The notes beneath the pieces were generated by a model. The model saw only the letters and a list, made by a program, of their open reading frames with translations. It was not told the DNA's origin and searched no databases. The position numbers and the translations under genes were made by a program. 64,000 nt of DNA from Octopus vulgaris (lineage: Eukaryota), in NCBI GenBank assembly GCA_951406725.2, contig OX597818.1, positions 66,464,001-66,528,000 on the forward strand, written 5' to 3'. Position 1 is the stretch's first letter. The number at the start of each line of letters is the position of its first letter. Positions 3,011 to 59,055 of this stretch are shown here, piece after piece.

Positions 3011-3160
3011 CATCGAAAAACCATAGAAACGAGAACCCAGGTTCAAAATGTCCCCCAAGACACCTGATGAAGGCTGCAGGTTATATCAGCCGAAACGTTG
3101 TGTTAACAACAAACAAAATGAGGACAAATATCCGTCAAATGTAAATAATGTAAAAAATGT
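3011..3160 (+). mobile_element. HHR-bearing short interspersed element (PLE pLTR/retrozyme-like), copy 1
   Basis: Homologous to 40448-40636, 53755-53907 and 58915-59055; starts catcgaaa immediately after (AAT)n. Confidence 0.85.
3059..3104 (+). ncRNA. Minimal type I hammerhead ribozyme
   Basis: gacac-CTGATGA-a-ggctg...cagcc-GAAA-cg-TT-gtgtt: stem I gacac/gtgtt, stem II ggctg/cagcc, palindromic stem III AACGTT, predicted GUU cleavage after 3099. Confidence 0.8.
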
Positions 3161-4437
3161 ATTGGTATGTAGGCAATATCAATTGTCAAGTAATTCTTAA
3201 TTATATTTTAAGTAATTAAGAAATAAACTCTATGAAATATATCCCTGTCCAAATATCAAATTGCGCATGGAAGTTGTAGACAGTAACTGAGTCAAAATTT
3301 GATTTCAATTACAAGTAATTTCAGAATACGTGAATGATGTATATTTGTTCTGAAATATCACAGAACGATTTTGCATAATTTAATTAAAGTTGTACTCCAT
3401 ATAACTGAAAGAAACACATATTTCAGGGATAAGGATATCAATTTTAAAGAGGCGTCTTTCGTACCATTTTATTTAGAACAACTTTCGGAACTTAACATGA
3501 GACAGATTTTGCCATTTCATCAAGCCTGGACAATTGAAGGCAGAATGAAACAAAAACACGGTAAGAAAACAATATATATTTGAAAGAAACCATCAAATAT
3601 ACATTCCAACTCTTCTAAGTAATTAGGTTGACAGAAGGTGAAATTTACAATGAAATTATACAAGTTTAACTAGAACTTGTACCATCTCTATTGCATTCTT
3701 CCACAATTGTTACATTCGACATTATTCAAAGTTTGGATACTTATATCATCGGGAAAGATACGTAAATCAAAAGTTATTCACGTATCTGGTGTGGCCATAT
3801 AATTCCTTTTGTAGGAAGAAACCAAAATGAAAAAGATAAATGTTTTAAATATCCTGCGGATGCTTGGTTTCTTTCCGTTAATGAACGTCGAAAAAGTAAA
3901 TTCGTTCATGAAATATCCAAGAAAATTAAAAAATTAGATATTAACTTAAATTTTTCCAAAGCCATGAAGAAATACGTGAAGTGAAAAAAATGAATATGGA
4001 TCAGTGTAATGGACTTTTTATCAGATGAAATTGTTTATAATTAAGTATTTAGCGACACATAAACAAACAAAATGAAAAAAAAATGAGAAGACGAAATGGA
4101 AACAAATGAAAATATTGCTAAAAGATAAATAAATTTTGAAGACAAATTAAGAACCCGAGGAAAGAAACAACATTCCCTTTATATATTTCATAAATGTTAT
4201 TTTCTTCTCTAATTCCGCTGCATTTACGTTAGTATGTATATCTTATGTATATATGAACGTATATACGTGTGTATATCTATACATATATGTATGTATATAT
4301 ACATATATTTGCATAGATATGTATTTATATGTGTAGGTGCGTAAAAATATATTCCACATAATATGCAATGAATAAAAGTATTAAACGTGAAATTGGAGTG
4401 ACATGTGTGACTTTTGAGTTGAAGCTAAATATATAGT

Positions 4438-4843
4438 TTATATATATACATTTATATATGTGTGTGTGTGTGTTTGTGTGTGTGTGTGTATGTGTGTATG
4501 TATGTGTATATATATATATATATATATATATATATATATATTCTCTTGGACTTTTCTATATCACATTGTTTGAAGAAGAGGTTTTCTCGAAGCGTAAAAC
4601 TCATCTATTTCTTTCTCTGAGCGTCTTATTAATACTTTGCATGTACCATGTCCTCGAGTTGTTGCTTTTTCTTGTCTCTCTTTCTGTGTTTTGTTTACTC
4701 ATTATACATCTCTCTCTCTCTTTACCTCTCTATCTATCTATCTATATATGTATATATATATATATATATATATATATATGTGTGTGTGTGTGTGTGTGTG
4801 TGTGTACATAGACACACATACACACACACATATATATATATAT
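4438..4843. repeat. Two (TA)n/(TG)n/(CT)n compound microsatellite blocks
   Basis: Direct reading. Confidence 0.85.
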
Positions 4844-5980
4844 AACTGTACCTGTACATATAATAGATCTAGTTGACAAGAAAGTGTTCAGAGATGAACT
4901 GTGTCCAGCGATTTCCACGAGGACAAACAAGCCTTATGTTTGCGCATGAAATACCGTGTAACATAATTTACAATTATTATCGCATGAAGAAGATGCATCG
5001 CAATTACCAAATAGCATTCGACAGAAGCGGTGACGGAAAAATAGAGATAAACCCAAGTTTCAAGAAATATCCTAGTTTAACATTGCATTATGCTAAGGGG
5101 AAGTTGATTTCCTACATAGCATATCTACTAATAACAAGGGCAAGTAACACTGACATTATGCATGCACCAACAAATTACATGATTAATTTGTTATATCCTT
5201 CCTGCTTTTTTTTCATCTGTAGCCAAGGGCAATAAATTGTTTATTGATAGATATGGATAGTGAAAGATAAGTACAAATTGTCACAGAAGCAATTATGGAA
5301 TGACTCAGTGCCAATCTTGTGTCCTGATGTATGAAAAACATTCTTTTTCGTAGATATTGGAACAAGTAAATTATATGTCAGTGGACCTACGTACTATTAT
5401 AAAGTGCATATTTGCTTTAAAATCACCTCTTAAAGTCATTGGCTCGTGCTATATCCCGCGATGCCTTCACAGGTGTGAGACTTGTTTCAGAGATATCAGT
5501 TATTCAGAAACCGAAAGTACCGAATGAGAAAGTAGAATGAATATGTGTGTCCTTGCTTGTGTTGACATTTGTGGAGTTCCAGGTGCAAATATCAAAGCAT
5601 TTGTAGCTAAAGACCGAATGAAAAGCGTTAAAATCAGTGGGAGTGCTTGAAAAGGATGTCTTTTGTCATATTAGTGTCAGTAAGAAAACTAGAATGAATT
5701 TATCTATCACTGGATTCGGTGTGATTGATTTACCCCCACACAGAAAATCGTTGGTCTTGTGTCTAAACGTGAGAGCTATTGATCTGGTGCTTGTGATATG
5801 AGTGAAGCAATGGAGAATCACTGGATTGTTATACCAACACAATTATTAAAACCGTATGCACACCCATAAATACAGACACACAGATGTATATGCGTATACA
5901 TATATATATATATATATATATATATATATATATATATATATATAAAGAGAGATAGATAGATAGATAGATAGATACTATAT

Positions 5981-6395
5981 ACTTTTTCACTTGTTTCAGT
6001 CATTTGACTGCGGCCATGCTGGAGCACCGCCTTTAGTTGAGCAAATCGACCCCGGGACTTATTCTTTGTAAGCCCAGTACTTATTCTATCGGTCTCTTTT
6101 GCCGAACCGCTAAGTGACGGGGACGTAAACACACCAGCATCTGCTGTCAAGCGATGTTGGGGGGACAAACACAGACACACAAACACATACATATGTATAT
6201 ATATATATATATATATATATATACATATATACGACAGGCTTCTTTCAGTTTCCTTCTACCAAATCCACTCACAAGGCAGTGGTCGGCCCGGGGCTATAGC
6301 AGAAAACACTTGCCCAAGATGCCACGCAGTGGGACTGAACCCGGAACCATGTGGTTGGTTAGCAAGCTACTTACCACACATCCACTCCTGCGCCT
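5981..6395 (-). mobile_element. tRNA-derived SINE family A, full copy
   Basis: Head aggcgcaggagtgg..gtgtggtaag...ggttcagtcc, central ttgggcaagt, internal (TA)/(TG), tail ggcggtgctccagcatggccgcagtcaaatgactgaaacaag; near-identical copies at 14.2, 21.7 and 29.3 kb. Confidence 0.9.
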
Positions 6396-6924
6396 ACTAT
6401 ATACTATATTCTATATACTATATCCTATATACTCCTTATATACGATTGGATATACTTTCAGACGTGAATACATAAAATATATTCAGACGTATTTTGCACC
6501 GAAGTAGACGTATTAAATTACCTTGAAATAGAAATACATATTTTATAGTCTCTGCTTATTTTATCAAGGTTTTTAATCTGTATAAAAAAACACAGTTTAT
6601 TTTAAATGGATGTGTGCTGAATAAAGTTGAAATTTCAAACACTGTTCATATATATATATATATATATATTTCTATATTATTTTCCTTATAAGTTATATAA
6701 TCTGTTAGTACCACGTAAAGCTTTTTATTGAGCCAGATGTGAAAACAACTAAAATCACTTCTGGAAATATATTTGAATATTTGAAATCTTCACCAATCAA
6801 TGGAATTTTTTTTTTTCCTGTGAAGAATAAAAGTTATTCTGTTTGCTTTTTTTTTGTTTTAAGCTGAGGTTTTTCATGGTTTCTACTGAACTTCATTTTG
6901 TTTATTTAGCATTTAACTGTGAAA

Positions 6925-57800: not shown

Positions 57801-58680
57801 GTCGATTAAATAAGTACCAGTTTCGCACTGGGGTCGATATAATCGACTTAATCTGTTTGTTTGTCCTTTCTGGGTTTAGCCCCTTGTGGGTAGTAAAGAA
57901 ACAATTGGCTGATAGGTGGGAGGAGAAACCTCTGCACGGCAAATATGTGACCCGCAGCAAACAAGCTGATGTTGACCAGAAGCAAACCCATCAGTGGCTA
58001 CGGGGCTCAGGGCTAAAAGCAGAGAGCGAAGGTTTCATCCTGGCTGCTCAATATCAAAGCCTATTAACCCGGAACTACCAGGCCAATGTGATGAAAAATG
58101 GAGCAGACCCAAAATGCCGATTCTGCAACGACATGATTGAAACAGTGGACCACCTAATCTCTGGATGTAAAGTCTTAGCACCAGTGGAGTATAAATTAAG
58201 ACATGACAGAGTTGGCCAATATCTCCACTGGCTAATATGTCGGCATTACAGTATCAAAACTGCCGACAAGTGGTATAATCACCTCCCTGAGGCTGTAACT
58301 GAAGGAGAAAATGTAACCATTCTGTGGGACTTTCCAGTACATACAGACCGAACCATCAAGGCCAATAAACCAGATATTGTTGTGAAAGACCAAAACAATA
58401 AAGTTTGCTTATTGATCGACATGAGCATCCCCTGTGATCATAATATCTCAGCGAAAGAGTTTGACAAGCTCAGAAAATATAAAGACCTACTCATTGAAAT
58501 TGAGAAAATGTGGCATCTCAAGGCGGTTACAATACCAGTGATCGTAGGAGCACTAGGAATGATCAAGAAGGGAACCGAAAATTATATGAGAATGATCCCT
58601 GGCTTACCATCCCTGCAAGAAGTGCAAAGATTGTCTTAACTGGTACATCACACGTATTGAGAAGAGCATTGTCGATGTGA
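54804..58680 (+). pseudogene. RT + CCHC + restriction-like endonuclease polyprotein
   Basis: NYRPITCL, IDYKKAFD, QGDSLSP, YMDY (for YMDD), CRFC..ETVDHLISGC..RHD, KPDIVV..IDMSIP..KY; TGA at 55434 and 57303, SINE insertion, frameshift near 58630. Confidence 0.92.
57686..57901 (+). mobile_element. SINE family B inserted in the Dong ORF
   Basis: TSD caatt at 57681-57685 and 57902-57906; removing the SINE and one TSD restores AHEQLADRW. Confidence 0.92.
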
Positions 58681-58856
58681 GAACTGTTGCTGCTCAAGTA
58701 TTTTAATTTAACTTAACAAAAAGAAAAAAAAAAATGAACGAACTATTGAGTTTGGTTTAATGGCCTACCAATGTATACTATGAGTTTCTTTGCCCTAGGA
58801 GTCGGGAAGACACTCGGCAAGAAATGGAAGCAAATTTGAAAGAAGAAAAAAAAAGG

Positions 58857-58913
58857 TAATAATAATAATAATAATAATAATAATAATAATAATAATAATA
58901 ATAATAATAAATA
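58857..58913. repeat. (TAA)n microsatellite
   Basis: Direct reading. Confidence 0.95.
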
Positions 58914-58914
58914 A

Positions 58915-59055
58915 ACATCGAAACATACCTTAGGAATGAGAACCCATGTTCGAAAATTCCCCAAGACACCTGATGAAGGCTGGAGTATATATCAACCGAA
59001 ACGTTGTGTTAACAACAAAGTAGATGAGGACAAATATCCGTAAATGTAAATAAAG
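58915..59055 (+). mobile_element. HHR-bearing short element, copy 4 (HHR 58965-59010, intact CTGATGA/GAAA)
   Basis: Matches 3011-3160; begins catcgaaa after (TAA)n. Confidence 0.88.

Follow-up and report, generated by a model that had tools for sequence, protein, structure and literature searches.

What are the four short hammerhead-bearing repeats that lie behind AAT-rich microsatellites in a 64,000-nucleotide stretch of the Octopus vulgaris genome (assembly GCA_951406725.2, contig OX597818.1, positions 66,464,001-66,528,000)? The original prediction, made from the letters of this stretch (hereafter the window, meaning its whole length), had put them forward as its best candidate for an undescribed non-autonomous ribozyme family. 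As judged by sequence comparison, they are almost certainly remnants of the terminal repeat (pseudo-long terminal repeat, pLTR) of a Penelope/Poseidon-type retrotransposon (Penelope-like element, PLE) with an open reading frame (ORF) for reverse transcriptase (RT) and endonuclease. A similarity search of the window recovered all four copies at the places and on the strands originally given; over 135-151 bp, copies 2-4 share 85-86% identity with copy 1 (E values of 1e-38 to 1e-44). As had been described, all four share one start point directly after an AAT/AAC tract.

3010-3161, plus strand: copy 1, pLTR body 1-153 (ORF start and hammerhead) at 90% identity, short 3' end
40447-40637, minus strand: copy 2, pLTR body 1-181 at 88% identity, 3' end of the long, tailed kind, core with C in place of U4
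53752-53908, minus strand: copy 3, pLTR body 1-137 and, after an internal deletion, the tail (long end), core with U in place of G5; from alignment
58915-59057, plus strand: copy 4, pLTR body 1-144, short end, intact core; from alignment

The pLTR consists of a tRNA-derived head of 75 bp that has an intact A box and B box, followed by an (AAT)n tract and then by a 186-bp body that contains the hammerhead. The body is the last part of the pLTR and also codes for the ORF start, the first ~55 codons of the PLE, so the repeats are not devoid of coding sequence as had been stated. It continues in frame into the PLE ORF. Being linked to the ORF start and in frame with it, the repeats of the window are therefore the distal part of a pLTR overlapping an ORF start. 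Among 30 loci picked by PLE C-terminal coding DNA, the query included, the head lies directly after the stop codon in 29 and the body further downstream in 26, which bears out an alternative already offered in the original prediction, that the repeat is internal to a PLE terminus. Four of 29 loci picked by 5' ORF DNA (L267, L272, L275, and L285) have head, AAT tract, and body joined directly to the ORF start, and a decayed full-length copy (L062) displays an inverted 5' arm, body end, ~2.3-kb ORF, head, AAT tract, and body in that order. Copies linked to a PLE ORF, which the original prediction had proposed to look for, were thus found at L062 and these four loci; the sequence is there the 3' pLTR of a PLE, the outcome that the prediction had set against its own proposal. 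A partial tandem of the pLTR is present in L062, L265, L267, L272, L275, and L285. Coding DNA precedes the head in 3 of the first 30 loci, and the head is found upstream of the AAT tract in many loci.

The single ORF contains an RT domain (RVT_1, E = 6e-8 on L062), and homologs 55-69% identical carry PF00078 and/or PF26215. In alignments, the endonuclease piece is 53-66% identical to homologs that have RT and/or PF26215. A degenerate GIY-YIG/CCHH pattern with its C/C/H/H residues is visible by eye in the alignment, and the linker between RT and endonuclease, likewise read by eye, is without the extra zinc finger of Neptune and Nematis. Contigs of four runs (four organism codes) contain the family; some bridge the ORF end to the head, and none spans the AAT tract. 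DNA of relatives for a comparison with and without the head was sought in metagenome contigs and was not found there.

The O. vulgaris genome is 2.8 Gb in size and rich in microsatellites. Evenly spaced 10-kb stretches contained 11 body matches in 7 of 78, from which very rough extrapolation gives a family of about 2-4 x 10^4 arms. All six heads in these 780 kb are followed downstream by AAT and then by a body. Exact matches to single 24-mers, counted genome-wide, number 862 for one just upstream of the head, 4,485 for one within the head, and 5,268 for one within the body, a drop of 5.2-fold across the head start and of only 1.2-fold from body to head; the head pattern allowed for CpG decay, and the upstream and body patterns contain no CpG. 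An exact pattern for the head gave 693 matches and its control none. Among the 30 exact heads that come first on contig C1, the end falls between -16 and +15 in 26, and a body follows downstream in 27, in one case of only 16 bp. Most copies thus start at the head, as far as these sequence counts tell. The true 5' end is the head, and the border between AAT tract and body, taken in the original prediction for a fixed junction at the end of the element, is internal.

The head had been reported as absent. In the window it is nevertheless present as positions 8-74 at 54114-54180 on the plus strand, and a reversed fragment at about 54085-54117 on the minus strand lies directly 5' of the AAT tract of copy 3. 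These pieces, and the surroundings of copy 1, are laid out as follows.

2878-2917, minus strand: inverted partner-arm remnant of copy 1 (body positions 96-135), 92.5% identity over 40 bp, E = 2e-11
2931-3009, plus strand: (AAT)n tract inside the pLTR, the head being lost at the copy 1 locus; from reading of the sequence
53909-54080, minus strand: (AAT/AAC)n tract of the copy 3 arm; from reading of the sequence
54085-54117 (approximate), minus strand: 3' part of the tRNA-derived head, with B box, of the copy 3 arm; from local alignment
54114-54180, plus strand: tRNA-derived head, positions 8-74, of the opposite arm, E = 1.5e-8
54181-54223, plus strand: (AAT)n after the opposite-arm head
54224-58857, plus strand: near-full-length long interspersed element (LINE) with a REL-endonuclease, inside the AAT tract between head and copy 4 (RVT_1 E = 2e-28, zf-RVT weak)
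58858-58914, plus strand: (AAT)n tract preceding copy 4

The fragment at 2878-2917, a fifth and inverted one, had been overlooked. Copy 1 is an inverted pair with a deleted centre. On the other side, the order is copy 3 AAT tract, head fragment, back-to-back head of opposite strand, AAT tract, 4.6-kb LINE, AAT tract, and copy 4. With copy 3 as the long arm and copy 4 as the short one, the two are probably one inverted pair split by a Dong-like LINE.

This arrangement of long and short arms recurs throughout the family. The 3' ends of 225 aligned copies of at least 60 bp are not ragged, as had been thought, and fall in two peaks, at ~140-164 and 180-199, some 40 bp apart. Inverted 5'-to-5' pairs consist of one long and one short arm in 54 of 60 cases and of two long arms in none (Fisher P = 1e-11). 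An outer direct repeat of at least 8 bp (8-15 bp) accompanies 25 of 52 pairings, compared with a shuffled mean of 1.0 and a maximum of 5, a few loci giving two pairings. A one-sided tail of 30-40 bp is a known PLE signature (PMC8557442); the two 3' ends match it and are consistent with the two internal RT start sites observed in vitro. Since the 3' end of the ribozyme strand bears this two-ended tail, the antisense template with a (UUA)n tail that had been considered is not needed. For the anole element, priming at two sites and on both strands has been observed in vitro, and the many inverted pairs of one long and one short arm support it from the genomic side. A hairpin at -6 to +4 is the junction of many inverted pairs, and private variants are common to both arms of a pair 27 times versus 10 in shuffled arms (maximum 21). 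Fold-back from one template is not shown by this excess, which is modest and would equally be given by gene conversion or a common source gene.

The 5' ends were classified in 153 arms, drawn from evenly spaced loci and from loci picked by the body; similarity to the window copies was the basis of choice in three of the four sets. The head start is where 60 of the arms begin, and 51 begin at the AAT border; 23 start within the body and 7 within the head, 9 reach into the ORF, 2 are internally deleted, and 1 meets the locus edge. The 51 border arms are what a stand-alone non-coding retrozyme, or an antisense-templated element targeting (AAT)n, would display, and a few head-to-tail dimers (L012, L150, and L216) might be read in the same way. 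We consider such an element very improbable. The body is a PLE ORF start linked to head and ORF, and the ORF linkage already refutes it; of the 51 border arms, 26 lie directly against an inverted partner and 6 come after a different AAT-tailed repeat, and every head in the evenly spaced stretches has AAT and body after it. A search for tandem copies among the examined loci yielded only these dimers, and the circular retrozyme monomer proposed earlier is unsupported, as the sequence is coding and no tandem arrays were seen, although no genome-wide search was aimed at arrays. The copies are end pieces of a coding, ORF-linked PLE and not a separate ribozyme family. The apparent fixed junction is accounted for by later inserts, deletions, and truncations in the AAT tract.

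A descriptor scan found in all four copies a 5-bp stem I, the first core box, an unpaired A, a stem II of 5-6 bp, and GAAA-CGTT. As originally reported, the core CTGATGA-A-stem II-GAAA-CGTT is intact in copies 1 and 4, and single changes are present in copy 2 (CCGATGA) and copy 3 (CTTATGA). The motif of copy 1 is placed as follows.

3059-3104, plus strand: minimal type I hammerhead of copy 1, with stem I 5' strand at 3059-3063, first core box at 3064-3070, and second box at 3092-3095

From hammerhead numbering, copy 1 is predicted to be cut after 3099. The features of the minimal type I are present, namely core boxes, an unpaired base after A9, a palindromic stem III region, and stems I and II. 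The available text of PMC4209133 describes the metazoan PLE hammerheads in the same terms, with a short stem I, a long stem II, an unpaired base after A9, a palindrome at 15.2-16.2, and no real stem III, and the octopus motif itself is no different. According to the same text, the minimal type I cleaves weakly and only as a dimer, and lone or opposite-strand minimal hammerheads 100-700 bp apart are attributed to truncated PLEs. For the anole element, the accessible part of PMC11167929 gives hammerhead cleavage as dispensable for insertion in vitro. Minimum-energy folds of octopus monomer and dimer form stems I and II but not the active core. No read of three RNA-seq runs ends at the predicted cut site, and Rfam returned no hammerhead in the window among the matches listed (150 of 160). 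Both boxes are exactly kept in 100 of 204 spanning copies, and core conservation is 0.95/0.99 versus 0.96 in the flanks. Selection on the ribozyme after insertion was thereby ruled out; since the core is no better conserved than the flanks, the copies decay neutrally.

The tRNA-derived head matches 18 of 18 tRNA invariant positions, compared with a mean of 9.1 and a maximum of 15 in 20,000 shuffles. The A and B boxes are intact, and the tRNA stems, read by eye, are broken. Among the 8 anticodon groups sampled, the closest genome tRNA is Arg (z about 9-10). ARAGORN detected no tRNA in 16 loci, and Rfam neither tRNA nor hammerhead in two short stretches. On the ORF strand of L062, TTTT (T4) is absent from 2,142 in-frame bp, where 3.1-5.4 occurrences are expected (P 0.001-0.025). 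It is also absent from the column majority over 2,047 columns, and its counts in two pooled, non-independent sets are 5 versus 47 and 17 versus 70. A control PLE family is not depleted (88 versus 92 expected), and neither are the Dong-like and Tx1-like ORFs. The near-absence of TTTT from the ORF strand, together with the pile-up of 5' ends at the head, suggests RNA polymerase III (Pol III) transcription, and the element is likely read by this polymerase from the head.

Anatomy, tandem and inverted arrangement, 5' pile-up at the head, and two 3' ends are plain from the loci. Our reading, to which we give a probability of roughly 0.6, is that the repeats are PLE pLTR remnants (head, (AAT)n, and hammerhead-bearing ORF start) of an RNA likely started by Pol III at the head, and that internal two-site priming, with copying to the RNA 5' end, leads to the short inverted pairs. 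Specifically, a transcript would start at the head of the upstream pLTR and continue into the ORF. The PLE protein would nick both DNA strands, and reverse transcription would start internally at two sites ~40 nt apart in the ORF start, as for anole Poseidon in vitro, and proceed as far as the head, where the RNA 5' end lies. Both products would then be joined 5'-to-5', often via the small hairpin at the head start, and would leave an inverted pair of one long and one short arm inside a 10-14-bp target duplication. Short copies resembling short interspersed elements (SINEs) would then be routine by-products of the full element and not a self-propagating family. AAT-targeting LINEs and other repeats, deletions, and truncations may later cut the head off, and hammerhead cleavage would be slow and confined to the dimer, with neutral decay of the motif once inserted.

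Several observations weigh against this reading. L061 contains 1 TTTT versus 1.7 expected, which is not significant against its own codon usage, and the T4 deficit is post hoc and, depending on one master sequence, suggestive. Three RNA-seq runs of one study cover the whole reference at about equal depth in both directions; they are deepest on the body and display no sharp RNA starts or ends, a result uninformative on Pol III. Arms beginning at the AAT/body border (51 of 153) or inside the body (23) do not reach the head. A Pfam search with the 183-aa endonuclease piece gave no GIY-YIG match. The flanks of copies 3 and 4 share a repeat of only 5 bp and no convincing target duplication survives, so that their pairing rests on geometry. 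Furthermore, a pLTR 5' end that is defined by a palindrome also occurs in PLEs for which no tRNA head is reported (available text of PMC3846280); because such PLEs share this palindrome-defined end, the hairpin by itself could account for the 5' peak.

This last point leads to an ordinary PLE pLTR whose head would be an inert relic of a SINE that inserted long ago in the 3' untranslated region; the 5' pile-up would arise from RT stalling or fold-back at the hairpin, and RNA polymerase II would be used, as it is by other PLEs. Palindromes at pLTR 5' ends and self-priming are known in Adineta PLEs (as far as the accessible text of PMC3846280 goes), the octopus hairpin is the junction of many pairs, their arms share private variants in excess, and no RNA start was seen in RNA-seq. 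We nevertheless regard an inert head as unlikely, though deserving of attention. In the family majority the tRNA stems are broken, yet the A and B boxes and all 18 invariants persist. Of the families tested, only the hammerhead-bearing PLE family has the T4 deficit, and many solo copies that have no inverted partner also start at -7 to +4.

Alternatively, the short copies might be a true SINE, a Pol III-transcribed head-AAT-body unit re-copied in trans by the PLE protein and independent of full-length elements. Short head-start copies outnumber ORF-linked ones by ~4 to 1, they are laid out like a tRNA SINE whose 3' end comes from its partner, and internally deleted non-autonomous forms exist (L089). 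This explanation appears improbable to us. When 29 ORF-linked copies are set against 25 that start at the head, a small sample in which minor subfamilies are possible, the majority base is the same in all 227 columns, and this argues against a separate SINE lineage. Moreover, only one copy in the 3'-end histogram extends to position 200 or beyond. The anole PLE template must extend about 55 nt past the RT start site (PMC11167929, available text). As they stop before position 200, the solo copies, by analogy, probably lack the binding region.

A wider proposal, which we make tentatively, is that an autonomous coding PLE acquired its pLTR promoter from a SINE, in the form of a tRNA-derived head. 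Pol III would transcribe the whole T4-free ~2.6 kb, tens of thousands of SINE-like copies (head, AAT, and hammerhead) would have been dispersed through internal priming on this one RNA, and transcription would start at the pLTR 5' boundary. If the head is a working Pol III promoter, a coding retrotransposon is here the product of a polymerase regarded as one for short non-coding RNAs, and translation has to proceed from RNA that bears no cap. A Pol III head would, if real, explain the defined pLTR 5' end and reveal a PLE route to SINE-like repeats.

The hammerhead and the insertion pattern are already known PLE features, and the tRNA head is the unusual part. As in Poseidon of Anolis carolinensis and Pen2/Pen3 of Adineta vaga, insofar as the accessible parts of PMC11167929 and PMC3846280 describe them, the octopus element combines an RT with a C-terminal endonuclease-like domain and partial tandems, its ORF start overlaps the pLTR and hammerhead, and it has an inverted 5' arm, a one-sided 30-40-bp tail, a ~10-bp target duplication, and a palindrome at the pLTR 5' end. 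Unlike these elements, whose pLTR promoter is given there as TATA/Inr-like or left unspecified, the octopus pLTR opens with an A/B-box head and (AAT)n, and the ORF strand is nearly without T4. With the non-LTR retrozymes (bioRxiv 10.64898/2026.07.22.740005, in its available portion) it shares a type I hammerhead, derivation from a pLTR, and short dispersed copies; those are tandem non-coding units, whereas the octopus copies occur singly or in inverted pairs, stem from coding sequence, and cannot be told apart from the autonomous pLTR. The TRIMp3 elements Cassandra, Helenus, and Ajax have a small-RNA-derived Pol III promoter in the terminal repeat, for which an origin by SINE insertion was proposed (PMC10886601). 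They are non-autonomous LTR elements, and the accessible text does not contain the word Penelope; the octopus repeat, in contrast, belongs to a coding PLE. The SINE-like Sm-alpha and Sj-alpha repeats of Schistosoma likewise have a Pol III promoter followed by a hammerhead, but as portrayed in the available sections of PMC6765202 and PMC8490949 they are tandem and non-coding, with neither ORF linkage nor a PLE insertion signature, unlike the ORF-linked octopus copies. A PLE pLTR with a tRNA-derived promoter was not found in literature titles and abstracts, a search outside which most subscription papers lie. The words "hammerhead" and "ribozyme" are absent from the main text of the O. vulgaris annotation, whose repeat library or supplements may hold the family.

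Further PLE-related sequences were noted in passing. Internally deleted derivatives (L089:4363-4805; L262, L272, L280, L287, and L290) join the 5' part of the ORF to the pLTR body, and several of them break near one ORF position (about 380-460), possibly marking a non-autonomous subfamily. Fragments of more distant PLE-type RTs, 28-33% identical to P0001, lie at L187:76-879, L064:4518-5116, L040:862-1242, and L005:765-1169.

The remaining features of the window concern AAT-tract inserts and neighbouring repeats.

40686-43885, minus strand: nested inserts in the copy 2 AAT tract, each AAT-bounded; read by eye, borders approximate
40686-43220 (approximate), minus strand: 5'-truncated Dong-like LINE in the copy 2 AAT tract; read by eye
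43271-43825 (approximate), minus strand: ~550-bp non-coding AAT-tailed repeat, (AAT)n-bounded; read by eye
49369-51100, minus strand: remnant (RT end and GIY-YIG) of a second, younger PLE family
15792-16208 and 12252-12641, minus strand: ORF pieces resembling a Tx1/L1-type element, in a GC-richer stretch (12-18 kb)

The LINEs at 54224-58857 (plus strand) and 40686-43220 (minus strand) we take, from their motifs, to be Dong/R4-like. In Bombyx, TAA repeats precede the Dong element, and Dong-R4 elements are abundant in O. vulgaris. Similar inserts part head from body in L206, L218, L222, and L229. The ~550-bp repeat recurs inside the octopus PLE AAT tract in L007, L008, L018, L150, L153, and L174 and is a candidate Dong-dependent SINE. 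In the second PLE family, which served as the control in the T4 comparison, a pattern search within 420 bases of the stop found no hammerhead or B box; the family has at least 150 genome matches, many with long open frames. Finally, a different tRNA-headed repeat adjoins some copies (L014 and L022, upstream of the central match).

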